From assembly GCA_001938485.1 (NCBI GenBank), contig MQRK01211181.1, positions 26,033 to 90,032 of the forward strand: 64,000 bases of DNA. The letters are read 5' to 3'. The DNA comes from Girardia tigrina. Its lineage: Eukaryota. Shown piece by piece: positions 1 to 46,400 of this stretch. The position numbers were made by a program, and so were the translations under genes. Position 1 is the first letter of the stretch. The number at the start of each line of letters is the position of its first letter. Below the pieces are notes generated by a model, which saw only the letters and a list, made by a program, of their open reading frames with translations, did not search any database and had not been told where the DNA came from.

Positions 1-39
1 TTTTGTATTTATATACAGGTGAATTGATTATTAATTAGT

Positions 40-78
40 GACCTGAAGATGACGGTAGATCCGTCGAAATATATTGTC
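40..78 (+). ncRNA. Minimal type I hammerhead ribozyme (Penelope pLTR type)
   Basis: GAC-CTGAAGA-T-GACGG-tagat-CCGTC-GAAA-TATA-TT-GTC: intact core, 5-bp stem II, palindromic loop III, stem I GAC/GTC. Confidence 0.85.
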
Positions 79-1129
79 TTAAAATATATTTTTAAATGGA
101 TGACTTTGGTTATTTTATTTATGATATATTTTTTAATGTTTTTAAAATTTCTTTTTTTTAGATTTAGTTGAAAAATTTATATGAGTTTCCCAAAATCCTC
201 ACAATCCTCATGATCGTGATCAAGATATACGCAGGATATAGAGATTATTCATTAATTAATTATTATTAATGCAATTAGAATCGTCTTTACATCAGTCCTT
301 AATAACACTCTCGATTAATACTCTTTCTCAATTTATACTTTCTCAATTTACACGACGACATGAGATTGAACAAATAAATATAAAATTTAATTATCAAAAA
401 TATAATGATTTTTTATATTTTAAGAATATTTTTTTTATATTGCTGAATAATTTATTTAATCAAGACTCAAAAATTATAATTCTAAGCTAGAATCAGAAAC
501 GTTTTTATGGACAAATTTATTTAATTAATTATTAATTAAATAAAAATGGAAATATTAGTTGATTTTTCGAAAATAATTTGATACTTTCATCAAGATTCTC
601 ACTCATTTTCAAATTCTCTCCTTAATACTTTAACAACAATAAGAAATAAAAATTAATTAAAAATTAAACGAAAATTAATTAGAGTTTAAATGTCGTAAAA
701 TAAAGGATGATGTCGGAAAAGGAAAACAAACAAAATCATCCCAGTAATATAACAAGGGGAAAATTAATGTTTTAGATGTTTTTAAATGGGATTTCAGTTT
801 GTCTACGTTGTAATTAATTAAACAGACTTCGAATTGTTTATTTGAGGTAACTTGAAATTAAATTAAATATGTAAAAATAAAAATTTTACTTAATTAATCT
901 CACGATTTGACCTATATAACCTTAAATTGATATATGTGATAAACTTTACGTCCATCTGTTTTAAAGACGTCCTATCGGCTGTAGTATCATATTGGGAAAG
1001 GTTTAGGACCACAAAAATGGTATAATGTCTATTAACAACATAAATATGAGTTTTACAACATTTATTAATATAACAAGCGCATTCACTATTTGACATCTCT
1101 CTTGATCAATATATTTCTGAGTTCATACT

Positions 1130-1470
1130 AATTATTTTCAATAAATGAAAATATGTTAATAAAAATTATTAATTATAAAGAATCTAATTGGTTAAAATTA
1201 AATCTAAAAAATTTTTAAAAAAGAACATATTAAATTAATATATTAAAATTTTAAATTACATTAAAAGATAAATAATACATTCAAAAATTATTTTACATCT
1301 TTTTACTTTAAAATTAAATTAAATTATTTTTAATCAGTAGGAATCAAAGAAAATACCAATCATCCATCTGTGCAGGAGAGGCACAATCCGAATCAACATA
1401 CAACATGCACAATATCAACACACAATGTCAATACAACTATTTAATTTCATTGCGAAATTTCACAACATTT
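1130..1470. repeat. Dispersed repeat family copy (other copies 16080-16340 same strand; 7860-8010, 47220-47400 and 47850-47960 reverse)
   Basis: Shared blocks such as aattggttaaaatt.aatctaaa and ccatctg.g.aggagag.cacaatcc. Confidence 0.7.
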
Positions 1471-1559
1471 GAGAAAGAGAGATAAAGTTACTTAGATAAA
1501 AGGCTTTTTTATTAAATCCACTGTCGAATTGTGGCTTGATACTTTTGTAAAGTGTCGAT

Positions 1560-1900
1560 AGTGGTAAGTAGATTATATTATGTTCTTCAATGTCATCCAT
1601 GGGAACATGTGATTTATTTTTTTTCTTTGATCAGTTAATTGATTTTCAATTCATTGAAACACTAGAAAATTCCCTTTCACCTTCCATTCAATTATTTGAG
1701 ATTCCAAGTTTAAGAGTTATTCATGACTAATGCAATTCACAGCACTCGTATATTTTAAAATTTGTTTCATAAACACAATTTCCATGATAGTCTCATTCCA
1801 TTGCCTCCAAGAAGCCCTGATCTAAATTACATAGAAAATATTTCGCATTTACTTAAACATCATTTATCTAAACTGATTATCTTCATGAAAATTCTTTCAA
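1560..1900 (+). mobile_element. Tc1-like transposase remnant
   Basis: Translates to LPPRSPDLNYIENISHLLK at about 1801-1860; frameshifts and stops upstream. Confidence 0.7.
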
Positions 1901-1914
1901 TAAAATTGAAGAGG

Positions 1915-2150
1915 ATGATGTGAAGCATTGTTGATCAAATCCTTTGATCCTAAAATCAATGTGCAAACACCGTCCTCTTCAACTTTATTGAAAGTATTTT
2001 CATGATTTAAATGACATAATGATTACATAAAGATTGCTTTGATAAATAAACGCGAATTTATCATTCTTAATTCAGTCTGATGATGACGGTTGATCCGTCG
2101 AAATTAATCACAATAAATTCTGACGATCATTTATTGATTTTTAAAAATAA
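1915..2150 (+). mobile_element. Penelope-like element 3' end (GIY-YIG C-terminus plus pLTR)
   Basis: EALLIKSFDPKINVQ...LLKVFS* followed by a hammerhead; related sequence at 35640-35720. Confidence 0.7.
2075..2111 (+). ncRNA. Minimal type I hammerhead ribozyme
   Basis: GT-CTGATGA-T-GACGG-ttgat-CCGTC-GAAA-TTAA-TC-AC. Confidence 0.8.
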
Positions 2151-2749
2151 TTTGTCTTCATTTCGTAAATATTTATATTATCTTAACCTAAATATTTTTT
2201 ATGAACATGTTCTAAATGCTTCAGAAACCATTTAAACCAAAAATGGTTATCTTGGTAGTTATTAATAGTATATACCATTAAGACTCTGATAAATAAACAT
2301 TTCAATTATACAAAAATACACTATTGAATGTGTTGAAAATTAAAAAAAAACATATTGTCTAATGCATAAAAACAATAAAACAAGTTCCATTGTCTTTCCT
2401 CATTCATTAATTATTCTCTCTCTTTCACACGTAAATCCAACTTTATTTACAAACAAAAACAATCAATTACGGTTACTCTGAAACATTTGTTTCATCATAA
2501 ATATTCCTCATTTATAATAACTACAAATAAAAATTTCATTTGAAAACATTTCTAAAAAGGTTACAGCTCTAACTACAATAAAATATAAATTATTTTTTAA
2601 TAAAAAAAATTTCGCAAAAACCATTTTAAGTAATTATATTTATCGAATTCAAATTGTAACAGGTTTATATCATGATTTTTTATTTTCAGTAGTTGCCTTA
2701 GCCACGAAACTGTCTTTTATTTTTACTTAAATATTGAGGCAGAGATAAA

Positions 2750-3485
2750 CAGCGGTATACAAGAAAAGAAGTTTTAGCAAATGCTACCTAGTAAATACTA
2801 GTGCTGGGAAATGCTAAGATTCTTATATAAGAAAAGAATCTAGCCCTAGTATTGACTATCTAGCAATCACTTAAGCGTTGCAATGGCTCTTGACCAATCA
2901 AATATGCTTTTAAATTATTTAATTTTTAGCAACCTTTTTTTCCTTTGGTATTCCTTAAATGACAACATTGTTAATAAAAGTATTTTATAAAATTTGAATT
3001 TTATTAATTTTAAATAAAAATAAACTAGCTCTTTGAATTTTATGAAAAGGCTAGTTTTTATTTTAATAAACTTTGCATTTTAAATGTAATTAAAATAATA
3101 AATTTAAAAATGAAATATTATCGTGATAATCTTTAAATTCAATTGACACTTTGTCATGCAAATTTCTTGGGGCCCCTCATTTGATTTTAGGAAATTATTT
3201 GTAATTAAATCACATTTTCTAACTTCTCATTTCTTCAATATGAAAAATATTTAAAATCAAAGCATTCAAGAAATTCATCCTTTTGGTTACATGATTCATC
3301 TAGATAGCTTCAGAACTATGTAGCATTCAGCCTAGCATTTGCTAGATTAAATGTTAGCATTTTCTACATATTTTTTACTCATTTTCTTATCTTGCATAGG
3401 AATTGACCCCCAGCAATTGCTACTAGCATTTACTACCTAGCAAATGCCTTAAATTTAGGGTATTTTCTTTTCCTGTATCCCGCTG
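2750..3485. mobile_element. Non-autonomous DNA transposon (hAT-like MITE)
   Basis: TIRs CAGCGGTATACAAGAAAAGAA / TTCTTTTCCTGTATCCCGCTG; subterminal CTAGCA repeats; TSD not clean. Confidence 0.75.
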
Positions 3486-3699
3486 AAAGATAGTCAACTA
3501 AGCCATGACTAAGTGAACACCCTTCTAGTTTTCGAGACTCAAACCTCATACAATTGTAATCCTTTTTCGGACTGCTATTGTTTTATTTTGGACAACAGGA
3601 ATTCTAATGCAATATCAGCTGTAATTAAATTTACGTTTCGTCAACAATATTCTTCTATAATAAGGTAGAGTATTCAATTAATAAATTTCATTCAAATAA

Positions 3700-4273
3700 T
3701 CCACTCGGTGTCCGCTTGTGCTAATCCTGATCAGCCCAACGAGATACAACAACAACAATTACCATTCTAAAAAGTTGTACAAAACGAAGGGGTGGCTAAT
3801 CAGGCACCTCTACTATGATCATAAATTGGAGGAGACAGAAGAAATTGTAGAACCGACAATGACACCAGCGTAAACCAGTACAACAAATAACACAGAAGAA
3901 AGAAAAAAATGTAGAAAACCTCAACATTCCAGGCGACCAGATTCCATCCGTGACGGACCCCCGACTATCTCGACGGCGGTGGAGGAAACGATAGATACTG
4001 GAGAAACACATCTGACTTTTAGGATTGCAGATTTAAATGCAAGGGGAGAGTTCAGATGTCCCTTTCGCAGCTGTACGAAGTCCACGAATACAGCCAAAGG
4101 TATGCAGAACCATGGATATACAACCCATGGATGGTCGTTTCTCACAGGGAAGCCGAAAAGATCTATCCGACCCATTAGGAGGCCTATCGGGGGGCTGCTA
4201 GTGATTCTTTAGTTTGGGTGGACCCTCTAAAGAGCCTAGAGGCTCAATAACATTCGAAAGAGATAGGAGGCCC
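3700..4273 (+). mobile_element. 3' fragment of a C2H2 zinc-finger retroelement (probably RTE-like), copy 1
   Basis: KKLYKTKGWLIRHLYYDH and CPFRSCTKSTNTAKGMQNHGYTTH, stop at 4212, GC-rich structured tail; homologous to 11271-11820. Confidence 0.65.
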
Positions 4274-4446
4274 GCATCGGGGAGACAAATCGTCATCTCA
4301 AAACCAAAATTAGTGAGCACTTGCAAAATAGTCGATCAAGTAAGGTTCTTGATCATTGGTTATGTTGTAAGGATAGAACCTCATCCATTTCAAAAGATGA
4401 GTTTTCTGTTCTACGAAAGGGATTTGATTCATATTACGAACGATAG
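4274..4446 (+). mobile_element. Penelope-like GIY-YIG endonuclease fragment (distal half)
   Basis: IGETNRHLKTKISEHLQNSRSSKVLDHW...FDSYYER, collinear with the GIY-YIG at 34060-34312. Confidence 0.8.
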
Positions 4447-10734: not shown

Positions 10735-10772
10735 GACCTGATGATGGGATTGTTATCCCGAAACGAGTTGTC
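10735..10772 (+). ncRNA. Minimal type I hammerhead ribozyme
   Basis: GAC-CTGATGA-T-GGGAT-tgtt-ATCCC-GAAA-CGAG-TT-GTC. Confidence 0.85.
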
Positions 10773-10799: not shown

Positions 10800-11906
10800 A
10801 TAAAAATAAGATGACAATTATGAAAGTATGGAACGATGGAATAAACATATCGTTTTCTCAAACGGTAATAGATAGATGTCATTGGTTTGTTTTCGAGAAT
10901 GGAATTGACTGATTAAAGAATATTTGAACCATGTTCTGCGATTTTAAAATTATCCAGAAAGACATCAGATAATGTCTATACACGATACCACAACATTGAG
11001 GTTATATTGAACAAACTATGTTCTCTAACAGGGGTTAAGAAAGGAACAAAGGAAGAAAACATTAATGAGTACAAAAAATAATCAGAATACTATATTCTAA
11101 TGGTTTTAAAGCATTTAGAAAAGTTTTTTCGAGAATACTGGTAGTGTTAAAGTGGTTTCAATGACATCCAAAGTTCAAAGCTTCATCTCGAATAAATCGG
11201 AAACGATTTCTGTAATGCAAGCTAATCTGTTTTATAAATAGAATTGTCACAAATGTAAAAACTCGTACATTGACATTAACAATTACCATTTCTATATACA
11301 CTGTGTAAAAAGTCATATAAAACGAAGAGATGGCTGACCAGAGACCTCAACTGGGATCATAAATTGGAGTGAACAGAAAAAAATGGAGAACCGACAATGA
11401 CACCAGTACAAACCACTACGACAAGTAACACAGAAAAAAAGAGTCGAAAAACTCTCAACATTCCAGGCAACCAGATTCCATCCGTAATGAACCCTCGACT
11501 ATCTTGATGGCGGGGAGGAAGTGATAGGTACTGAAGAAACACATCTGACTTTTAGGATTACAGATCTCACTGCAAGGAAAGAGTTCAGATGTCCCTTTTG
11601 CAGCTGCAGGAATTCCAAGAATATAGCCAAAGATGCGCAGAATCATGGATATAAAACCCATGGGTGGTCGTTTCTTACATGGAAGCCGAAAAGATGTTGG
11701 AGACCGAAACTATCCAACCCCGTAAGAGGCCTATCAGGGGACTGCTAGTAAATCTTTAGTTTGTCCTGAACCCCTAAAAAGCCTAGAGGCTCATCACCAT
11801 TCGAAAGAGATAGGAGGCCCACATCGGAGAGACAAATCTTCATCTCAAAACCCGGATTACTGAACATTTACAATCAAGTCCATCGAGTAAGTTTCTTGAT
11901 TACTGG
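10800..11906 (+). mobile_element. Penelope-like element remnant; GIY-YIG split by an insertion at 11271-11820
   Basis: VMQANLFYK*NCHKCKNSYI | IGETNLHLKTRITEH; preceded by a hammerhead. Confidence 0.75.
11271..11820 (+). mobile_element. 3' fragment of C2H2 zinc-finger retroelement, copy 2
   Basis: QLPFLYTLCKKSYKTKRWLTRDLNWDH and CPFCSCRNSKNIAKDAQNHGYKTH; flanked by ACAT on both sides. Confidence 0.7.
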
Positions 11907-12564
11907 TCGAGAAAATTAAAATTGATCGAACTTAAGCAAAATTAAGCACAAAAGAATGGGTTTAAAATAGAGTTAAACAGATTAAAAATTAAATTTAAAA
12001 ACTAAAGTTATTTTGATAAAATCAGGCGAGTGCAATAATCGTCAATGACTTTTACAGCAAATTGTTAAAAAAATTTTGCAATTTAAAAATCATAAAGTTA
12101 ATATTTGTTAAATACAAATGTGTAAATGTGTAATTTGTTATGTTGGTTGTTTAATTGTATTAAGTAAAGAATTTTAAGCGGAAACTCTGCACAAAGTTTT
12201 AAAATAAATTGATTTGGAATAAATGCTTTTATTTTCTGTAATTTAAGAATGCCGAAATTATCGAAAAATCTCAATATCACTCCGATTCACAATAACAACG
12301 AATTGAACAATTTAGGCGAAGGAATTTGTGTATATGTTACGAATTAATAATATATTTATAAAATTTATTGTAATTTTTTTGTTAAAATTTTTTTTAAAAT
12401 TGTAATTAATGTTGGTATCTGGAAAATTCGAAAAATGTAATTTGTTTAAATAATATGATTGTAAATTATAAAAGTTTGTATGTCGATTAAAAATAAACAG
12501 TTGTGATTGAACTTCGAGTTTTCAATTTTTGAATATAATTAGTAATTAAAATTAGCATTTTCTG

Positions 12565-13388
12565 ATGGCATTATTTTCTCCGACAAATCAAAAGCGATTG
12601 ACAAATGTTTCCGATGTGAAACTAATCGTAAAAACCGATAGAAAACGTCGTCTATATGAAATATCATATTTTTCCGGATAAAGTGATCGCTTGGCAACAA
12701 AAACTTGAATTTCAAATCCAAACTCTGCAAAATGAGCTGATTTACACGAATGTGTCAAAAGCGGAAATCTCGAGCAAAGACGATTCGAAAGACGCTTTTC
12801 AAACGACGAATATTTTGGAGATTTGTAAAATTATATTAGAGAAAGGAGAGCTCCAATTGACGGAAAAAAAGACAATTTGTGATGGATAATTTAATTAAAG
12901 ATGTCGCAAAAATTCTGACTAGTAAAACGTTGAATCCGAGTACAAAACTATGCTTTCCACCGGGTGTGATAAAAAAATGATTCACGATTGTCACATCAAT
13001 TTGAAACCGAATAAATCCACAAAACAACAATCTCTCGACGTTATACGAATGTTGATAAAGAAATTGAATGTTCCGATCGATGTCGCTCTTTTATCTGTCA
13101 ACATTATTGTGACACAAAAACAAATTAAATCAATCAAACTAGAATTATTGAGTTATTGTGAAAATATTTTCTCAGAGGTACCGCAAGAGCACGATTATGA
13201 AGGCGATTTTCGAACCGGAAAATTATGATTTATTCAAAGAAAATTTCGAAACGAAATGCAAAATCGAATTACACAAAAAATGCAACAACATAATATATCA
13301 TTTGCATCAACGACCTCGGATTCGGATAGAAAATGAACGGAACTTGAACTCGAGCTGTTATGTGAAGAATGAAGTTGTCACTCGATAA
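12565..13388 (+). pseudogene. SBDS: Frameshifted intronless copy of ribosome maturation factor SBDS/Sdo1
   Basis: MALFSPTNQKRLTNV...IYTNVSKAEISSKDD...ICKIILEKGELQLTEK...NPSTK...KPNKSTKQQSLDVI; about four frameshifts. Confidence 0.9.
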
Positions 13389-13763
13389 CTGCATCAGTAT
13401 GCAGATTGGAGATAAAGTTCGAGTGGAAAAACAAAAGTGAAAAAGAAACGGTCCTCATAAGGGCCAAAATTACGGATTCTTCAAAAATTACGGTTTAGTT
13501 ACATTGTTAAAATAACATTTCTTCTGTTTCAAAGCATAAGTTTTCTGTTTTACCGAAGTGCTTTGATTCACACTATGAACTGCAGTTTTATGAATCATTA
13601 TTTATAATCAAAGTAGGTAAAGTAAGGCCATCCCAATTCTTAAAATTTTTAATTAAAATTAATAAAAATTTTGCCTATAATATGCAATAAAATCCTAAAG
13701 AAATTAATGTTTACCGATCAAATCTTCCATTAATTACTATTTTATTATCTTACATATTACATA

Positions 13764-13803
13764 ATTTCTGATGAAGGAAAATGAGTTCCGAAATATGTAC
13801 AAT
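13764..13803 (+). ncRNA. Minimal hammerhead ribozyme (weak stem I)
   Basis: CTGATGA-A-GGAA-aatgag-TTCC-GAAA-TATG-TA-caat. Confidence 0.65.
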
Positions 13804-15078
13804 AACCAAATTCTTAAAAAAGCTTTAACGAAATTGTTTTTGAAAAATATCAAATTTGCGTTCACAAGATAGAATAATATATATATATATTGTTTAATTG
13901 TTTCAACAAAGTGAACGAGAAAATATCATACAACCAACAATTTATGTCATTAGAATTCACTACATATTTCGTTCTTGAGAGAGCATCTTCAGTTGGATCG
14001 ACCATTGAGAGAACAAATATTAAAAATTCAAAACTAATTGAATCTTCTGTATCAAACACAGAATATAATTATTATTATTATCATAATTACTACATTATTA
14101 TTATTATTTTTTATATAATTATTTGTTGAGGAGATTGCAAAGATAATCATTTCATAGACGCGCAAGAAAATACATCTACATAGAAAAATAAACATTTTTA
14201 TTAATGCTAAATTTTATCATGAAATTCATTTATAATCATTTTCGATTTCATTGAATAATTATTATTTTAAGCTTTTTTTCTGAAGACTCTTCTCTTCTGA
14301 TGAGAGAGATAAATTTTGTGTAGCTTTAAATAATTCAATACAAAAGGAAAAGGCTTGCAATTAGTTTTGTTAACTCTAACTGAGAACAGCTGCGGTTCTA
14401 TAGCAGGCAACAGCAGCGAACCTACGGAGTTACTTTTAAATAACAAAAGAAAGATATTTTTATGATTACTAAGAACAAAAACTACAAACAGCACTGAAGC
14501 TGTGCACAAAACGTTCTTAAAAAAGATACAATCTAATGAATAACCAGAAATACTTTTGTATTTATCAACGACTAAAATAACTATTAACTCTATATGAATC
14601 AATCTTCTTTTAGAGTATATATTTTTTATATAATTAATATAATGAGCCCATAATATATGTTGATTATATTTATAATCTTAGTTTTGTTGAATAATAATTT
14701 TGCTCATTGTGTAAAATTGTAATGGTGAATACAGTATTCGACAATTTCCGAATAAATAAAATTTTAAACCAGCAATTCTAAAACTGTGATGAGCGGCTCT
14801 TCGGTAATCTAGGGTAGGCTGATTGGGGGTAGTTATTATGTTCTCTTTTATTTATATTGCGATTACAGACATCACCCTTTTAAAATACTTACTAATTACT
14901 ATTTGGATATTAAATGTATTAACAATACAAATATGAATTTGTGAACATTTATTAAAATAACAAACAGAATTGTCATTACAACAATTATTCAAACTACTTT
15001 CGCTTTCGACATTTTTCTTTATTAATATATTTGTGAAATTTATCCTAATTTTTAAAATAATTAAAAAATATTTATTAA

Positions 15079-17932: not shown

Positions 17933-18088
17933 CTCAAATTTTAAATACTATTTGAGTATAAAGTTTGATTTTACTTTCTAACTATAAACATTCATGCAAA
18001 TGTAAAATTTTGATTATACATTTGCATGATTGTTTATAGTTAGAAAGTAAAATCAAACTTTATACTCAAATAGTATTTAAAATTTGAG
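17933..18088. repeat. Long inverted repeat, 72-bp arms, 12-bp spacer
   Basis: 17933-18004 versus 18017-18088; one mismatch found by eye. Confidence 0.92.
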
Positions 18089-28845: not shown

Positions 28846-29814
28846 CTATTTAGTCATATATAAAGCTTCTAAGTCTATTGGGAAATTTTCCTCCAATGTT
28901 GTCCTTGATCTGTAAAGAAGATCGAGAACTGGCCGACTAAAAATAAAATTGACAGCAATAAACAGAGTTTGCAAGGAGCAGCACAGTGTAAACACATGCC
29001 ACAATGCTGGACTGATAAGATGCGTTGCGGCACCCCCAATCGTCCAAATCAATAAATAAGTGAAAACTAATTTACAACACATTTTATATCTCGCCGACAA
29101 TTCTTGATTTTGAAAAAGAATAATTCTATCTTCCCGGGTTTTATTACAACTCATAACGTAAATAGCTATTAGAACGAAAATAGTTGTCAAAATTCCAATG
29201 AAAATCGGAATGTAAAAAAACAAATCCATGTAGATTGTGTTCGTAAAACTGCACTCGATTTCATGTTTAAAAGTTTCTATAATTTTCGGGTTGAGATCCA
29301 GCAAATTATCCATGTAAGACTTAAAGTAGCAGCATAGAGCCGGTAGAAGAAAGGAAACTAATGCTCCCCAGAAATATTGTACACAATCGAATAATTTGAA
29401 TGTCGATGCTGTATGACAACCCCTGTACATAACTAAGCATATCTGACAAGAGGTTGCTAGATTCCAGTAGATTGAGGAAACGAAACTGAATTGGGATACG
29501 GATTCCATTATCAGTCTTTTATGAATCCAGTTATAGTTAGAAATATACTGAATTGTTTTAATGTCCATGCTGCAAGTGGTCATGAAGAAAATATACGAAA
29601 ATGCCATCATATATAAATTGGTTAAAATAAACGATCCGTAAAGCGTCCGTATATTACGTATACATGTAACGAAAAGGCAATGCATCCCCATTGTTAAAAT
29701 AGCAACAACAAAACAAACTTTACTAACGGCTGAAGGTTGAAACAGCGCGGTTGAGTTATCTCGACATCGCATAAACTCAAATTCAGATTTAAAGTTAGAG
29801 CTATTACATTCCAT
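28846..29814 (-). CDS. 7-transmembrane GPCR, secretin/adhesion/Methuselah-like class
   Basis: Open 322-aa ORF, seven hydrophobic segments; IRTLYG (cf. LRNLHG), SSIYWNL (cf. ASFFWM), SLQTLFI (cf. SLQGLFI); AATAAA on the minus strand near 28792. Confidence 0.85.
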   Translation of the reverse strand: MECNSSNFKSEFEFMRCRDNSTALFQPSAVSKVCFVVAILTMGMHCLFVTCIRNIRTLYGSFILTNLYMMAFSYIFFMTTCSMDIKTIQYISNYNWIHKRLIMESVSQFSFVSSIYWNLATSCQICLVMYRGCHTASTFKLFDCVQYFWGALVSFLLPALCCYFKSYMDNLLDLNPKIIETFKHEIECSFTNTIYMDLFFYIPIFIGILTTIFVLIAIYVMSCNKTREDRIILFQNQELSARYKMCCKLVFTYLLIWTIGGAATHLISPALWHVFTLCCSLQTLFIAVNFIFSRPVLDLLYRSRTTLEENFPIDLEALYMTK

Positions 29815-29956
29815 TGCTTTTCTAATAAAATTTCTTCGGGATAATTAATTTATCATTCATACAGCTTTAGATTTACTAGTTTAGAAATTGTCCAATAGGA
29901 ATATCAATATTTCAAGAAATATAATTTATTTATATTATTATGAATGAATATTCATT

Positions 29957-33350: not shown

Positions 33351-33961
33351 ACTTGATTTTATTTGAGATAATATTTCTAATAATAAGAAATTATTATTTT
33401 ATTATTTCTGATTAAATAAAATGATAATACTTTAGTTAGATCAATATAATAAATGATCAACATGTTTGAATCACTGTATACAAAAGGATTAGTTAAATGA
33501 TATATCACACAATATAGACGGCAGATAAGTGCGACAAAATAAATAGTTTATGATAACATCCAGATAACAACCAGAGCTGCATATTTAGTCAATGAAAAAA
33601 GTCGTTCCGTACTTTTCCTTCTTTTATATTGTTGTCGAACTGGTATGAGATCCGGAGATAAGTTCGCTGAGGATTCGGATATTATGGATTTGGAAGGATT
33701 TATAAATAGTGTAAGTATTTTATTTTTTCGCGTCTTTATTAGAATGAAAAAACAATTCTTGATTCTGTAAGGTACGTAACGAAGACATAATATTTCTATC
33801 AATAATGTTTCTCCTTTTACTAACGGATTTTTAATTTTTTAATTATTTTTAATCTTTCTAGCTCAAAGTAATATTGATTAGTAAATATATATTTATATTA
33901 TAGTAAATAATATATATATATATATAAAGAAAAAACGTCATACTAATAGTTTTTTACTTTT

Positions 33962-33996
33962 CAAAACATGTTTCGCCATTTCGGCATCATCAGTTG
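33962..33996 (-). ncRNA. Minimal type I hammerhead ribozyme
   Basis: CAA-CTGATGA-T-GCC-gaaat-GGC-GAAA-CATG-TT-TTG. Confidence 0.85.
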
Positions 33997-34433
33997 TAAA
34001 GTAATTTCAGATTACAAGCCATTTATATGGCACATTGACTATTACATAAATAAATCGAAAACCCCATCGGGTGTACAAGCTAATCTAGTATATCAATTTA
34101 AATGTCACAAGTGTGAATCCTTGTACATTGGAGAAACAAATCGTCATCTCAGCACGAGAAGAGCTGAACACACTCAATTGAGTAGGAATAGCTTCATTCT
34201 AGATCACCTTAAGAAATGCAGAAATAGAGGTAAAGTTAACTATGAAACTGAATTTACAATTTTGAAGAAAAATTTTGACACATATCATGAGAGGATAGTC
34301 ACTGATTATTAATAAAGCATTTAAAACAATGCTAAAATGTCCAATCATAGTAAAATCTTTTCATATTAAAAAAAGATAAATTGCGTAATAGTCAATGTGC
34401 CATATAAATGACTTGTAATTTGAAATTACTTCA

Positions 34434-34468
34434 CAACTGATGATGCCGTAATGGCGAAACATGTTTTG
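34434..34468 (+). ncRNA. Minimal type I hammerhead ribozyme
   Basis: CAA-CTGATGA-T-GCC-gtaat-GGC-GAAA-CATG-TT-TTG. Confidence 0.85.
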
Positions 34469-35432
34469 AAAAATAAAAAAACTATTAAAATAGCATTTTT
34501 TTTCTTTATTTTGTTTATAAATAAATTGCCATTAAATCTAAATGATATATATAAATATATATTATAGTCATCCTCATCACTTCCACCACCTAAAGCAAGG
34601 CTTTTCTTGGGATAGACTGGACATGAACGATGTGGACTTTAAAGCAAATAAATAGAAAAATAAATGTATTTATCATAAATAAGCAATATAGGGGGTCACA
34701 CCAAAAGCCTTTACATTTGGTACTCTTGGATGATATTAATCTAATCTTTTCTAATTATATCCTTTTCTTTATTTTTTGTTTCTTTTTTATCTTGTAGATA
34801 TGTATTCAATATTATCATAACTTAGAATTCATAGTAACGTTTTATTTAAAATAAAATCATCTAACATGTTGATGAGATGGTTAATGTTCAAGGCATGCTT
34901 TGTAAAAAACCTTCTTTTCAAGATATGTCCAATATTCGGAGAATAAGTGTTAGGTCTTTGCGTAAATAATAAATAACTAATTTCCTAATAATCATGAACA
35001 AAAAAAATCTTTAGCAAAAATATATCCATGAAATTAGTAAATAATCCGAGAAATTCGATTTTTTATTTTAGACATCATAAAAGAAAACGAAAAATTTGTT
35101 TCGTCTCTCAACATCAAAGATGAAAGAAAAAAAATAATATATACTGATAAAAATATATAAATATAAATATATTTCCATTGTATTAGATGTTAGAAAAATA
35201 TTTTTATTGATAAATTTTATTTAAATAAATACATAAATATTAAAAAAAAATTTTAGAAGTTTAATATTAAGTAAAACATTAAAAGTAAATTATAAAGCTA
35301 TAATTTTGTAAGTGCATTTTTGAAAAATAAATATAATAAAATAATAAATTTTAAGAATTAAATTATTGATAATTAATAAATAGAGATGAAAAATTGTTTT
35401 TAAAACTCAAATGACGGTCATCATAATATATT

Positions 35433-35468: not shown

Positions 35469-37482
35469 TAAGTTCCTATATATTCTCATTTACACACGGC
35501 TTCTGATAACAAATTTAGGATCATAATTGAAATAAAAGTGATTGTAATATTGCTCAACATTAATTAATTTAAAGTTTATATAAATAAAATATAAGAGTTT
35601 GCGTTCATAATTTAATATTTACTGGGACAAGGTGATGTTGGAAGAATTGGTGATCAAACAATGATCTTTAATCCTAAAATCGACATCTTTAACTTTATTG
35701 AAAGTATTTTTATGATTACATTTGATCCAAAGACATTAATAATAAGTAATTAGGAATTCTGTTTTTGTCTATTAAAAACAATTTTCCATCACTATTTACA
35801 TATTTATAATAGTTATTTATTATTTTTTTTAATTTTTTAACTTTACCCTTTGATCATAATTATTTTTATAAAAATCGAATGCACAATATGAATTCTTTAT
35901 ACAAATCTTATTTACTCAGTTAATATTAGATCTCAAGTTATTGATATTAGTGTAGTGCCCACATTTACCGATCAAACTGTCCTAAACGGCAGAAACCACT
36001 CACAACGTATTTTAGCAGAATATAAATTTCTCTATTCAATGCTCGTGATGTGTCGCTCATGCAGAAATGAAAATCAATTAATCGATCATAAAAATTAATT
36101 AACTAAATATTAATCGATGTTTATATAGAAAATATATCAAATTAAAAAAACATTGTTTTTTAAATATTGTTGATTTTTGTTTTTTTACATTCCTTACGAT
36201 TCTTATGTTTATGTTTCATCGGATTTAATTTATATAATAATACTTGATAGTTGAGGTGAAGTTCCTACTGAAAAGGTCGATCGACAGGTCATATCCAACT
36301 TCATCACTTACAAAAAGTAATTTGAAAATAAAGACGGAAACACTGAAGTAGGACAAAAGTTTCATTTATGGTAAAGAATCTTGATTTGATACTTGAATCA
36401 CACAATCATTACCGAAAGATTCAGTTTTGTGAAAAAAGCCTCATAAGAAATATTAATGGAAAGCTAATACAAAAATAAACTAAAGATTGTGAAAATGGCG
36501 AAATCAAGAGGACATGTAGTATTCAGTTTTATATAAATGGATTAATAAAAAACTTAACATTGATCTGAAAGTACTAATAAAATATTTCTTATTTTTTATC
36601 TTGTATAATTTAAATACTGACATATTTTCCTTAACAGAAATATAATGTCAGACTATTTATAATTGTAGAATCACTCAATTGTGACTCCTTTTTCTGAATT
36701 ATCTGAGTTCTCTCTTCTGAGTTTTCTTCTTTCATTAAAGTCGAACGGAGATTATTATTAGAAATTATTAATATTCTTTGTCGCGATCGGTGAATATTAA
36801 AAAGATTTAAAAATGAGAATTATTCTCAAATAACAATAATCCGTACACTCTGCGTAGTCTAAATGATACGTTATTAATAACGTATTAATATTCAAAATCT
36901 TTTAAAAATAATTTTCATTATTTTTCAATATTAATTGATAAATAAATATCAAAATTATGCATAAAAAAATATATATCCTAGTTTGATAAAGGAAATTAAG
37001 CCAATAAATTTTTGAATTTTTATGTATATTAGCATCGAAGGATAGACCATCGTCGTCACAACAGAGGATAATTAAAAATAATTCTACTTATATAGTGCAG
37101 TTAATGAATATGTAATCAATACATCACTAACTCATAATTTAAAACATTCAATAAAGTTGTAAACGTTAATTTTTAGAATCTAAAAATATTATAAACATAG
37201 ATTCTTCATATATCTCTCTCTTCAAATAATTCTTACGACATTGACGGACGTTTGTGTCTATAGACGTCAAAGCGAAGTTCACTATGTGAAATGATGGCAA
37301 TTGCATGCACAATGTAACTGTTGTTTTTAGATACTACAGCTATAGTGGCACAAATGTTCATTTACCGGTTATATCAGCAACATAATTAAATGTGCTGAAT
37401 TACTCAAAATTAAGTAAGAAAGAGTAGAACTATACGTCTGATATTCTAAAAATTACAAAACCATAAAGAGTTAATTTTCGAA

Positions 37483-38900
37483 TTTTTTTTTGTCAGTGAG
37501 CAAAGTGCCCCGTTGGAACTATATTCATTTGCAACATGTTTCGAACCGTACCCGTCCTCAACATGTGCCCTGATTTTCACAGGGGTTCTTTTCTCGCGGC
37601 CTCCCCACGTACCCTTCAATTGGGTGATCGTTTCTGCCGAGTCCGACACTTTCACTCATTCCCTATCAACTCATCATCGGAGGAAATCTCTTCCTCCCAT
37701 GATGAGTTGTTTTCATCCTCAGATGAATCTCCAACCCGCCTCCTATATGGGAGACTTCTTCATCTTCGGATGATTCATGGCCTTGGAGTTCATCCTCTTC
37801 AGCCCCCTGTTGCGTTCTAATTCTATAATTGTATGATTGTAAGAGTGCAACCAGTATGGCAGGATCAAGATCCTCTGTCGCCTCCTGTTCCAAATATTCA
37901 AATTCAGTTTCTTCCATCATGAGCAACTATATTTCTTCGACCTTTATTCTTCTTATTATTTTTGTGTCTTGAAGAATCACACCATTTCGGTAATACAACC
38001 ATTGTGCAGCTGAGTATTTTACATTTGATATTGAACAGCCAATGGCAATTTTCCGTATCTCCTTTGGTTGGATCTTTAAGTTTGTCAGGATATTGGTGCT
38101 CCTCTTCGGCCAGGTTCCTATTGCGCCAACCTGGAGAGTGTGCTCCGATACCGTTGTCTCAGGCATAGCCCGACGGCATATCACCGCCAAGTTCTCGTAG
38201 TGATCAAGATTCCTGACATTGCTATTTTCTATATTCTTTTTTTGTGTCATAAGGACACTTTATATATATTAAATACAAGTGATTCGACCCTGGTACATAA
38301 ACTTCTTTATCAACTGGGTCTCTCAAAGGTGCATATTGACACTCAAAATCTATGTGCACTGTGCAATCACGATACTGAGTTATTTGTTTTCCTATACACC
38401 TGAGGACCGAGTTATGTCTATATTTCTAAAAGCCCTCACTAAACAGACATCCGGTCAACACATGAGCAAGGGTTTCCATATTGTTGCGACACCTAAGACA
38501 GTGACCCCTGTTTTTCATACATCCTGGGTGGTAATTCACAGGGACTGTGTAAGACATCGCCTTGTGAAAGAAATATCACTCACTGTAATTCAAGCCCCCC
38601 ATAAACAGCGCCGTGGAAGCTAATTGTAGAAATTAAACTTCTCGCAAAGCGACCAGCACTGCTTTGTTTTTTCCATTTGTGTGTCCATGATTTCTCCACT
38701 AATCTTCTTAGTGCTCTGGACACAATGTCCTTCAGAAGGGATGTGAGCAGTATATTCTCGTCCTTATCATCCCTTATATTCTCTGTCTTCCCATTCGGAA
38801 GTGTCCTTTCCCATACAAGGGATTGGTGGAAATGGAGACTCAATCCTTGTTCTTTCTCACATAAATCTGGTGCAGCTTCTTGAACGAATTTTAAAACAAA
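37483..38900 (-). mobile_element. 3' part of an RLE-type (R2/NeSL/R4-like) non-LTR retrotransposon
   Basis: CCHC knuckle CLRCRNNMETLAHVLTGC (about 38448-38503); RLE tail LDHYENL...VGAIGTWPK; GC-rich 3' UTR and A9 tail. Confidence 0.85.
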
Positions 38901-39859
38901 TATCATTTTTTGACATGATTTTTTTACATTATAAAATTATTTTTACATAGAAAGTGTTGTGTACGATTAGTTTTTTTTACAATAAAATATGTTGTTTTTT
39001 TAATGTATGTAGTATTGTAGTAAAATGTTGTGGTACACAACAATCGAATATTGAAATTATAGATTTTATTGCATATATTGGTGTGCGGTAATAATAATAA
39101 CATTTATAATTATAATAACATTTATTATTTATATATTCTCCAAAACATTTCTAGTACCTATGTAACTTTAAATTACCAATAATAGGTTTATTAATAATAA
39201 ATGCCGATGATTATAGTTTTAAAAATATACTTTTACATTCTCTCTGAATAAGTTTTAGTAATTAATAAATAATGAATTTTATTTTATCTCTTGGAGCACG
39301 AACTTGGCTTCATTTTTATATTTTCTCTAAATGCATTTGTCATATTCTGATAAATAATTAATTCATTTTAAAACGTAATTTATATTTTTTTTATTGATCG
39401 AAATTTGCAATAAATAAAAGCACGAAGTTTTCCGCATTCGATAGTTTTAATAAAATATCTTGACTTTATCACAAGAAGGAGTTCTTTATAATTACTTTGG
39501 ATATTTTTTCATCCTTCATTAACGAAAAGAATCAGTGGCTTCATATATCCATTCCGTTGAATGAACAACCTTCGGATAAAATACAGTGACCCTCATGAGA
39601 TGCATTAGAGGTCAAACTTTACCCCTTTTTAGTTTATAACTTAAAAATTATGAGAAAAAGATATTTATAGAAAAATGATTTGCACGAAAAGTGGTAGAAT
39701 TTTGTCATTTACTTCCTTTCATACGTTAAACTCAAATCCTCAATCAAGATTCCTTTTTGTTTTCCGTTTAATTACCTTTAACAATTGGTCAAATTTCAGA
39801 TCTATTCAATAAAGAAAGCTACATTGAATTTATTATACTAGAATCACAATAATTTAACT

Positions 39860-41950: not shown

Positions 41951-43329
41951 TTTTTGAAAAAGGCAAAGATAATCTGGAAGAAGAATCATTTCAAATTTTA
42001 TTTATCGAGAAGCATTTTAAAAATTTAATTGGGACTCAAGGACAAATCAATTTTTCAAATTTTATTTGACAAGAACCATTTTGAATTTTATTTTTTTTGA
42101 GAGTCAAGAAGAAATCAATTTTTATTGAAAGAAGCGTTTAAAATTTTTCGAGAGCGTATTAAAATATTTGAGAAAATTTGATTGAAATCAATTTACGGAT
42201 TAGCTTAACGGGTTATTATAATCATATAACTAAGATTTAATATTTAATTTTCCAAATTAAATTTGATAAAATAATATTTCATTTTTACATATTAAAATCC
42301 TCATCAAACTGAATTTACTAATTGTAGAACTCTGATTAGTGAAAAATCAATCGATATAGGCAATCTTTAATCTTTATTTATTTATATTGTAAAAATTGTA
42401 ATAAAATAAATCTTATTGAAAATAAATCTGATACCTTTTAATTATTGAATTTAATTCATAGTAAATTTTCACGAAATAATTAAACGCTTACAATCAAATT
42501 TTTGGTTTTAACCTTCAATCAATATCTTAATCCAAAGACCTAACATCTCTCGGAAAACCATCTAGAAAGGCAAACCAGAGAAAGGAAAAAAATTTTTGTT
42601 TGGTTTCCGAAAGTTTAAAATACTTCTCCGGAGACCCAACAAACGCAACCAAGATTTCGTATTCATATTCAAATCAATTAAGATGTGTACCAAACAATTC
42701 GAAAACTTTTATTATCAACCTGAGACATTACTAGGGGATGTCGCAGACGAAACGACCCTTGGATTCAAATCAGTATTTCGTGAAACTTTCTCTAAATTTA
42801 TCTTCTGGGATCATTTATTTATCTTCGAATTAATTCATTTATCTACTGTTTTTATTCATGCCTTTCTTTTTTGTATTTTTTCTTTTCGTTAAAAAGTAAA
42901 TATTAAGCTTTAAAATTGGTTAACTCATTTAAATTTCTGATAATGAACTTTTGAGAATGACTAACAGCAAGATTTAGCACAGAAATAAAAATACGTTTAA
43001 CGATAAACCAGAACAAAAATTTTAAAAATTCAGAGGGATAAAATCAATGAAAATGGTGGTTTACTGTGGTAAAGACTTGTAATAAGCTGTTTAATCATAT
43101 TAGATAACAACATATAACTTGTCATCTTCCGACCAAAATTTACCTCACAACGAGCAAACAACTAAGTACTAGATACTGGTTAGTGATGAAATCGGTTAAA
43201 AGATTTATGTCAATCAATTTACCTCTGGGGAAAGTTGACAACACATTACTGAATAGTTTTTTGCAAAGGAACCTGAACTTCATAAAAAACTTCCAATCAA
43301 CAACAAAAGTGATATCAAAGGTAATCGAA

Positions 43330-43562
43330 GGAAAAGAGTACCCGAAAATTCTCTAGTCGTGTATCAAAAGAGTGCAATGCACGTATCCTTCTTGTTTCAA
43401 AGATTTTGCGGAACAGAAGGAACTAAGAAGACACAGCAAAAACGTACATACGGTCACGATGTCGTAGCGATTGAATGGCGACATACCTTTCCAATGTCCC
43501 ATGGAAAATTGTCACAAGGCATATAAAAAGGATGGATGGTTAAAGCGACATTTAAGAAAATT
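43330..43562 (+). mobile_element. Zinc-finger retroelement fragment with two C2H2 fingers
   Basis: CTYPSCFKDFAEQKELRRHSKNVH and PFQCPMENCHKAYKKDGWLKRHL. Confidence 0.7.
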
Positions 43563-45944: not shown

Positions 45945-46400
45945 TATTTAGTTTACCAGTATAAATGTCACAAGTGTGAATCCTGGTACATTGGAGAGAC
46001 AAATCGTCACCTCCGTACTAGAATTGCAGAACATACCCAATCAAGTGGAAAAGCTCAATTTTGGACTACTTAATGAAATGTCATAAAACTCAGGAGGGTA
46101 TATGGTAATGATTTTCAGGTTATAATTAGTAACTTTGATCACAATCATGAAAGTACAATTACTGAAGCACTGTTAATAAAGTTTTGTTTAAACCTAGTTT
46201 AAATATACAAATTGATTCATCCAATCATATTAGAGTATTTTGATGTAACACATTGTGATATAATGGTCATCTTACTATATGAACAAAAAGATTTTACTTA
46301 AATACAGAACTGAAGATGCCGCAAAAGTGGTGAAACATGTTTTCTAATAAAAATTTAAAAATTAAAATGGTGTCATTTTAGTCTAATTTTAAATAAAATA
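45945..46400 (+). mobile_element. Penelope-like element 3' end
   Basis: LVYQYKCHKCESWYIGETNRHLRTRIAEH...TEALLI, followed by a hammerhead. Confidence 0.88.
46306..46345 (+). ncRNA. Minimal type I hammerhead ribozyme
   Basis: AGAA-CTGAAGA-T-GCCGC-aaaa-GTGGT-GAAA-CATG-TT-TTCT. Confidence 0.8.

Follow-up and report, generated by a model that had tools for sequence, protein, structure and literature searches.

A shared 3′ junction of a zinc-finger retrotransposon fragment in the YIG codons of two Penelope elements of Girardia tigrina

Can one retroelement repeatedly insert at a single position within the catalytic codons of another? We asked this of a 64,000-nucleotide stretch of Girardia tigrina contig MQRK01211181.1 (the window), in which two copies of a zinc-finger-encoding fragment end at the same base of a Penelope endonuclease motif. 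The window is AT-rich and animal-like in composition (GC 17-36% per 2 kb), and decayed transposons are dense across it. An earlier note on this DNA had proposed independent site-specific insertion, with a chimeric master element as the alternative.

Two filled sites and their Penelope target

Comparison of the window with itself yields one strong pair, 3768-4360 and 11306-11907, 80.6% identical over 609 columns, that marks two copies of an insert lying 7.5 kb apart (Table 1). The copy 2 insert is 550 bp long and contains fingers 2 and 3, a stop codon at 11746-48, and a 72-nt 3′ UTR. It interrupts the Penelope frame at the Y-I codons of the YIG motif, the frame picks up again at 11823, and ACAT is present on both sides, just as the earlier note had described for a C2H2 fragment splitting this motif. 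An alternative reading of the duplication is 6 bp with one mismatch, and the position at which the insert ends 3′ is ambiguous by at least one base. A 4-base overlap at copy 2 has a chance of less than 1% by arithmetic from base composition; the ACAT repeat could be microhomology instead of a target duplication.

Copy 1 aligns with copy 2 without gaps across the junction. Its stop codon lies at 4199-4201 in the source frame, the insert terminates at 4273, and after GCAT the I-G-E-T frame runs on from 4276. Both copies have two stop codons at the ORF end and then 72 nt up to the junction, and neither junction has a poly-A or repeat tail. At the 5′ side the copies differ by ~16-18 codons: copy 1 begins at residue 522 of the reference protein P0053 (window 3702) and copy 2 at about residue 538-540, which amounts to variable 5′ truncation in two copies, although the 5′ end of copy 1 could be a later break. 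No target duplication was found at copy 1, and no Penelope proximal half upstream of it in 2100-3700 at a score cut-off of 45. The earlier note had claimed the common terminal base followed by the Penelope frame, the longer 5′ reach of copy 1, its missing upstream GIY half, and the absence of poly-A, and all of these hold. A MITE-like element with 21-nt terminal inverted repeats (2750-3485) lies directly upstream of copy 1.

The I-G-E-T codon pattern occurs at four sites in the window, two filled and two empty. Two 3′ ends of the insert family were found in the window, both on YIG-E-T sites, with the same 3′ junction in 2/2. Given the first junction, a random second insertion onto another such site has a probability of about 7e-5, which excludes independent random insertion.

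We take the interrupted element to be of Penelope/Poseidon type, and its endonuclease to be GIY-YIG partly on the basis of characteristic motifs. The related proteins P0036 and P0050 combine RVT_1 with an intact YIGET motif, giving the target the RT, C-terminal GIY-YIG, and pseudo-LTR (pLTR) of an EN+ Penelope-like element; Pfam GIY-YIG was not reported in P0036 or P0050, and its only match is the window copy at 33950 (E 0.0015). EN+ elements of this kind (Penelope/Poseidon) are described as having an RT followed by a C-terminal GIY-YIG domain and a pLTR that repeats the ORF start (PMC3846280), and next to these the target shows nothing unusual. The YIGET motif is kept in all 15 members of the P0036 cluster and in P0037, which reflects selection for open ORFs and not site occupancy.

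The Penelope element surrounding the copy 2 insert is complete. Its proximal half matches intact P0036 in three frame pieces (24/43, 11/23, and 32/50) and may start farther 5′, following a hammerhead-like core at 10738. The earlier note had let this Penelope end at 11906; instead, it resumes at about 13495 after a second insertion, and the 3′ pLTR beyond it matches the N-terminus of P0050 (E 7e-5). Within the 1.59-kb insertion, Pfam detects SBDS_domain_II at 12926-13225 (E 2.8e-7), and the SBDS-like sequence at about 12564-13340 is frameshifted and apparently intronless. No terminal repeats or duplication were found at this insertion, which could be host DNA captured by Penelope.

Hammerhead-like cores, scanned for with a motif that we presume to be characteristic, occur at 42, 2077, 10738, 13768, 19876, 33993 (minus strand), and 34437, most of them beside Penelope pieces; the Rfam scan of the window reported no hammerhead. 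An inverted pLTR-like pair (33869-34045 and 34385-34564) surrounds one uninterrupted GIY-YIG copy.

Table 1 Features of the filled and empty sites in the window
Feature	Position	Strand	Basis or remarks
Copy 1 insert	3702..4273	+	Same element as copy 2, longer 5′, less decayed; P0053 residues 522-695
Penelope distal half behind copy 1	4274..4443	+	51/56 identical to intact P0036
Penelope proximal half of copy 2 (thumb/linker to Y of YIG)	10950..11270	+	Match to P0036
Left copy of 4-bp target duplication (ACAT)	11267..11270	+	Sequence
Copy 2 insert	11271..11820	+	5′-truncated 3′ end of APE-RT-3xC2H2 non-LTR retrotransposon; decayed
Right copy of 4-bp target duplication (ACAT); distal Penelope half starts here	11821..11824	+	Sequence
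Penelope distal half of copy 2, first piece	11821..11906	+	70% to P0036; 69/87 nt to copy 1 flank
Second, unrelated insertion, about 1.59 kb, frameshifted SBDS-like sequence	11907..13494 (approximate)	+	Penelope frame resumes beyond
Penelope distal half of copy 2, second piece, to ORF end	13495..13656	+	tblastn to P0036 and P0037; 58/83 nt to copy 1 flank
3′ pseudo-LTR of copy 2 Penelope	13750..13860	+	Hammerhead-like core at 13768, ORF-start repeat
Uninterrupted Penelope GIY-YIG region, other subfamily, empty site 34125	34049..34294	+	tblastn; Pfam GIY-YIG E 0.0015, below curated cut-off
Uninterrupted Penelope GIY-YIG region, other subfamily, empty site 45988	45948..46181	+	tblastn; motif scan

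The source family of the inserted element

Using the ORF at 3874-4209 as a query, we found 17 proteins, and in the longer RT-bearing ones the match sits at the C-terminus. A search with one member of this cluster leads to the source family P0053, the end of which is exactly the end of the window ORF. The 3′ UTR is matched by four frameshifted members of sister clusters (P0058, P0196, P0203, and P0185) that read into the window UTR frames, and it is thus conserved between subfamilies with proteins of only about 50% identity. Since the window ORF ends together with P0053 and the UTR is kept across subfamilies, the insert is, judged from its sequence, the natural 3′ end of a non-LTR retrotransposon with 5′ truncation. 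The copy 2 insert matches P0053 residues 540-695 in two frames (49/72 and 59/77).

In P0173, a 1188-aa member of the P0053 cluster, Pfam detects Exo_endo_phos at residues 2-239 (E 2e-5; 24.9 bits, cut-off 24.5), RVT_1 at 534-780 (E 1.5e-35), and zf-C2H2 at the end. The architecture of the source family is thus a single predicted ORF with an APE endonuclease, an RT, and three C-terminal C2H2 fingers, and its best PDB match is LINE-1 ORF2p. An N-terminal APE followed by RT places it among the APE-type non-LTR elements, an assignment made on the source family, the window copies keeping only the 3′ end. The earlier note had suggested reconstructing the full-length element and typing its endonuclease, and P0173 answers with APE and not RLE. 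Membership of the RLE group (R2, NeSL, CRE, R4, HERO) does not fit: three C2H2 fingers and then the stop follow the RT, and the endonuclease is APE. Full-length 1188-aa ORFs lie on contigs of 3889-3925 bp with no space for an ORF1, although these contigs may be incomplete. About 340 nt precede the ORF of L001, a full-length multi-finger member (1-3725) on a 3.7-kb contig of a bacterial MAG (Paraclostridium sp.), where its presence is most likely eukaryotic contamination; P0067 is a comparable case in a Thiodiazotropha MAG.

We placed the source family in a tree of 58 selected RTs (26 likely relatives and 32 others), which consists of sequences without clade labels. The 25 RTs with at least two terminal fingers fall on one side of a branch (SH-aLRT 95), and the five that carry the window's C-terminal motif form a subclade (SH-aLRT 97). 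Named relatives come from Schistosoma mansoni, S. rodhaini, S. haematobium, Calicophoron, and Hymenolepis, and are outside the motif subclade where placed. The source family appears to resemble the RTE clade, and its nearest finger-less RT matches include DUF6451-bearing proteins, which we take to be RTE-type. The short tandem repeats that mark the 3′ end of RTE elements are absent, with no repeat tail at either copy, and we therefore call the family RTE-like and do not class it as RTE. An Atlas search returned one match at 0.92, to an unnamed zinc-finger cluster.

Other identities for the insert were considered and rejected. The fingers are C-terminal, which rules out the N-terminus of an RLE element, and a solo LTR or DNA transposon is ruled out by the lack of terminal repeats and by the insert encoding the end of an RT family. 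Kinship with an RLE-like fragment at 37.9-38.9 kb is ruled out, there being no similarity. That fragment (37927-38936, minus strand) appears to be the C-terminal part of an RLE-type element, which by its motifs is presumably NeSL/R5-like; it has no Pfam support and adjoins an acidic ORF-like stretch at 37450-37900.

Four internal fragments in the window belong to other subfamilies of the same multi-finger clade: 22992-22594 (minus strand; 86% identical to P0054), 22295-22071 (minus strand), 43237-43560 (plus strand), and 5014-4730 (minus strand). None of the four has a 3′ end. Folding of the 3′ end gives no significant structure (z -1.15 to +1.06 in 12 folds). The last ORF codons (4176-4192 and 11724-11745) form a motif that is common to the whole subclade and resembles the junction in copy 1; this motif may be a signal that acts in the RNA and overlaps the stop.

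A single insertion or two?

Because one insertion is enough to inactivate the nuclease, any copies it later gave rise to should have diverged without selection and to the same extent in insert and flank, and should be equally decayed. The two copies agree at 432/510 positions of the insert and 127/170 of the flank (Fisher p 0.005), and a longer flank (148/201) differs from the insert with p 0.0008. Amino-acid changes affect 19/55 flank codons, fewer than the 26-27 expected under random placement of these substitutions (p 0.0006 and 0.0024, depending on the reference copy), which indicates purifying selection. This signal is retained when the first 11 codons are left out (p 0.001-0.004), the second flank piece by itself is borderline (p 0.05-0.09), and neither control frame of the flank shows significant selection. 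The insert behaves as neutral, with 37/126 codons changed versus 38 expected.

Decay is also unequal. Compared with intact references, which may come from another species (P0053 in a three-way alignment for the insert and P0036 for the flank), copy 1 is about 90% identical in both parts (108/120 and 51/56) and copy 2 about 70% (88/120 and 38/55). Copy-specific amino-acid changes number 26 in copy 2 versus 6 in copy 1 for the insert (p 0.0005) and 14 versus 2 for the flank (p 0.004). The two Penelope halves of copy 2 are roughly equidistant from P0036 (32/50 and 38/55), the pattern that a clean insertion would give. Since copy 2 is the shorter insert and directly abuts its duplication, copy 1 is not derivable from copy 2 in its present form. 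Copy 1 is the more recent of the two, lies in a Penelope similar to a family that is still intact, and retains more of the element than copy 2. Taken together, these sequence comparisons favour two separate events at one base over a single duplicated insertion or a plain chimeric master. Of the earlier note's proposal, the independence of the insertions is what gains from the divergence, the flank selection, and the unequal decay, while family-wide specificity rests on two junctions; the same three observations count against its alternative, a plain chimeric or duplicated master. The tree comparison that it had suggested, carried out on flanks, does not reject an origin in one clade: the six-row flank tree does not resolve, and the AU test does not reject copies 1 and 2 as one clade (57 columns, p 0.55).

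The two inserts also share features. Relative to P0053, both are one base short at the same C-run (3958-62 and about 11492-96), which is in frame in 9/9 P0053 members reaching the C-terminus (among 15 listed of 17), and both share three amino-acid differences from P0053. The frameshift is compensated in copy 1, where four bases are gained upstream, and uncompensated in copy 2. It can be parallel slippage, a compensated local-source variant, or one defective master.

The shared frameshift leaves room for a reading in which the homology comes from one resident master. A master that had landed by chance in a Penelope YIG, having no tail itself, would be transcribed on into the Penelope sequence, and this 3′ extension would pair with the YIG of other Penelope copies, either during target-primed reverse transcription (TPRT) or in a template switch of the Penelope RT; the insertions would be site-specific only for descendants of that master. 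We consider such homing possible, though on the unlikely side. It accounts for the shared frameshift and residues together with flanks of differing subfamily and age, a template switch would explain why copy 1 has no proximal half, and avian R2 is described as requiring pairing of its 3′ tail with the target primer (PMC13580325). Over its first 33 bp the flank is 29/33 identical, like the insert, and identity then falls to 40/54 and 58/83; however, these 33 bp are also the most conserved stretch in all four motif copies, and so their identity says little. No master was seen, and the third finger of copy 1, nearly as in P0053, misfits a long-lived master with an uncompensated frameshift. The shared frameshift also fits a single ancestral insertion that was duplicated locally or carried by Penelope, after which copy 2 was trimmed by deletion and the flank of copy 1 was replaced by recombination with a younger subfamily. 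The two copies are near each other, one clade is not rejected by the AU test, Penelope pLTRs are reported to mobilise cargo in trans (PMC3846280), and a 4-base microhomology lies near the 5′ junction of copy 2. A duplicated dead locus should, however, decay equally and neutrally, whereas decay differs at least fourfold between the copies, in insert and flank alike, and the flanks bear signs of selection on the coding sequence. For this history to hold, a crossover must also have fallen less than 30 bp from the junction, a deletion must have stopped at the duplication, and the young insert of copy 1 must have a cause of its own; we find it improbable.

A looser preference for a short GC-rich motif, rare in an AT-rich genome, would make Penelope an incidental carrier. 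Both filled sites read CATCGG and both empty sites CATTGG, and the ORF-end motif resembles the junction in copy 1 (5/5000 shuffles were as good, in a post hoc comparison); in copy 2 the resemblance is not significant (920/5000 shuffles). The window contains 13 CATCGG and 10 ATCGGRG sites, yet the element stands upstream only at the two junctions. As such short motifs are common outside Penelope, two hits in Penelope require a longer one, and we give this explanation very little credence.

Further junctions were sought beyond the window. Among 236 proteins, four reach the UTR and none reads through into the target, and proteins of 49-158 aa include no candidate for a junction-spanning off-frame peptide (P0035). 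A scan of genome contigs gave one locus from 29 pattern matches, a distant relative (28%) on a contig that ends 15 nt past the stop. No junction beyond the window was seen in these proteins and contigs.

A possible mechanism and its relation to known targeted elements

The reading we prefer, with confidence about evenly balanced against doubt, is that an RTE-like single-ORF element gave rise to this 3′ junction at least twice, on separate occasions and in two different Penelope subfamilies, with the site probably recognised by protein. In such a scheme the APE domain would nick just before the ACAT of the Y-I codons, and insertion would most likely follow by TPRT, as in the general non-LTR pathway. 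The RT would prime on the conserved tail-less 3′ UTR and stop early, giving variable 5′ truncation, and a staggered second nick would give the 4-bp duplication. Recognition of the site would be built into the protein, for which the fingers and the APE are the candidates. Copy 1 would be a deleted primary insertion or else a Penelope-mobilised 5′-truncated copy of a donor with such an insertion; with either origin, its junction would have arisen apart from that of copy 2. Insertion strikes the most conserved coding motif in a repeat that is both multicopy and dispensable, so the host cost would be low and the nuclease of a rival would be broken. The broader proposal, that the subclade evolved specific insertion into the Penelope GIY-YIG catalytic codons across subfamilies with the C-terminal fingers reading DNA, is one we put forward tentatively, as somewhat short of an even chance.

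Tx1 elements have two ORFs and belong to the L1 group. Tx1L and Tx2L of Xenopus (Tx1 clade) are described as targeting the DNA transposons Tx1D and Tx2D (PMC6719617) and so resemble the present case as non-LTR elements inserting into another element; the Tx1 clade is given as APE-type (PMC4640811), as is the source family. Unlike in Tx1L/Tx2L, the target here is a protein-coding catalytic motif of a retroelement, and the source family is predicted to have just one ORF, which ends in three C2H2 fingers. The RTE clade (RTE-1, BovB, SR2/SR3) shares with the source family this apparent single ORF, an N-terminal APE with RT, and a short 3′ UTR. Unlike the source family, RTE elements are described as integrating broadly (PMC13708176), and plant RTEs as ending in short tandem repeats (PMC3747384), whereas no tail is visible in the source family, which also forms a multi-finger clade of its own among the 58 RTs of the tree.

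The RLE group shares C2H2 fingers with the source family, but carries them at the N-terminus. It differs from the source family, with its APE and C-terminal fingers, in having an RLE and in mostly targeting RNA genes or microsatellites. Its members R2, NeSL, Utopia, and planarian LIN are described with a fixed 3′ junction, variable 5′ ends, and a multicopy target (PMC4640811); the two window copies likewise have one 3′ junction and differing 5′ ends in a multicopy element. According to the same source, target-specific families are mostly found in the early-branched (RLE), Tx1, and R1 groups, with transposons among the targets (PMC4640811); Tx1 into Tx1d is a named example of a retroelement targeting another element (PMC6719617). 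The full-text literature that we searched, which lies outside Repbase, Dfam, and most subscription papers, holds no account of the source family or of insertion into the Penelope YIG.

If this RTE-like lineage is indeed specific, it would represent a further independent origin of targeting among non-LTR elements, and its target would be of a new kind, codons for the active site of another retroelement, which stay constant through selection on the protein of the victim. It would also be a direct case of conflict between elements, a retroelement hunting and disabling a competitor, and would offer a compact single-ORF protein in which three C2H2 fingers are testable as a specificity module.

Elsewhere in the window, a 332-aa open frame at 28846-29844 (minus strand) looks like a seven-transmembrane receptor by eye, with no Pfam match. 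A near-perfect 156-bp palindrome at 17933-18088 is the source of two weak Rfam matches to miRNA families.
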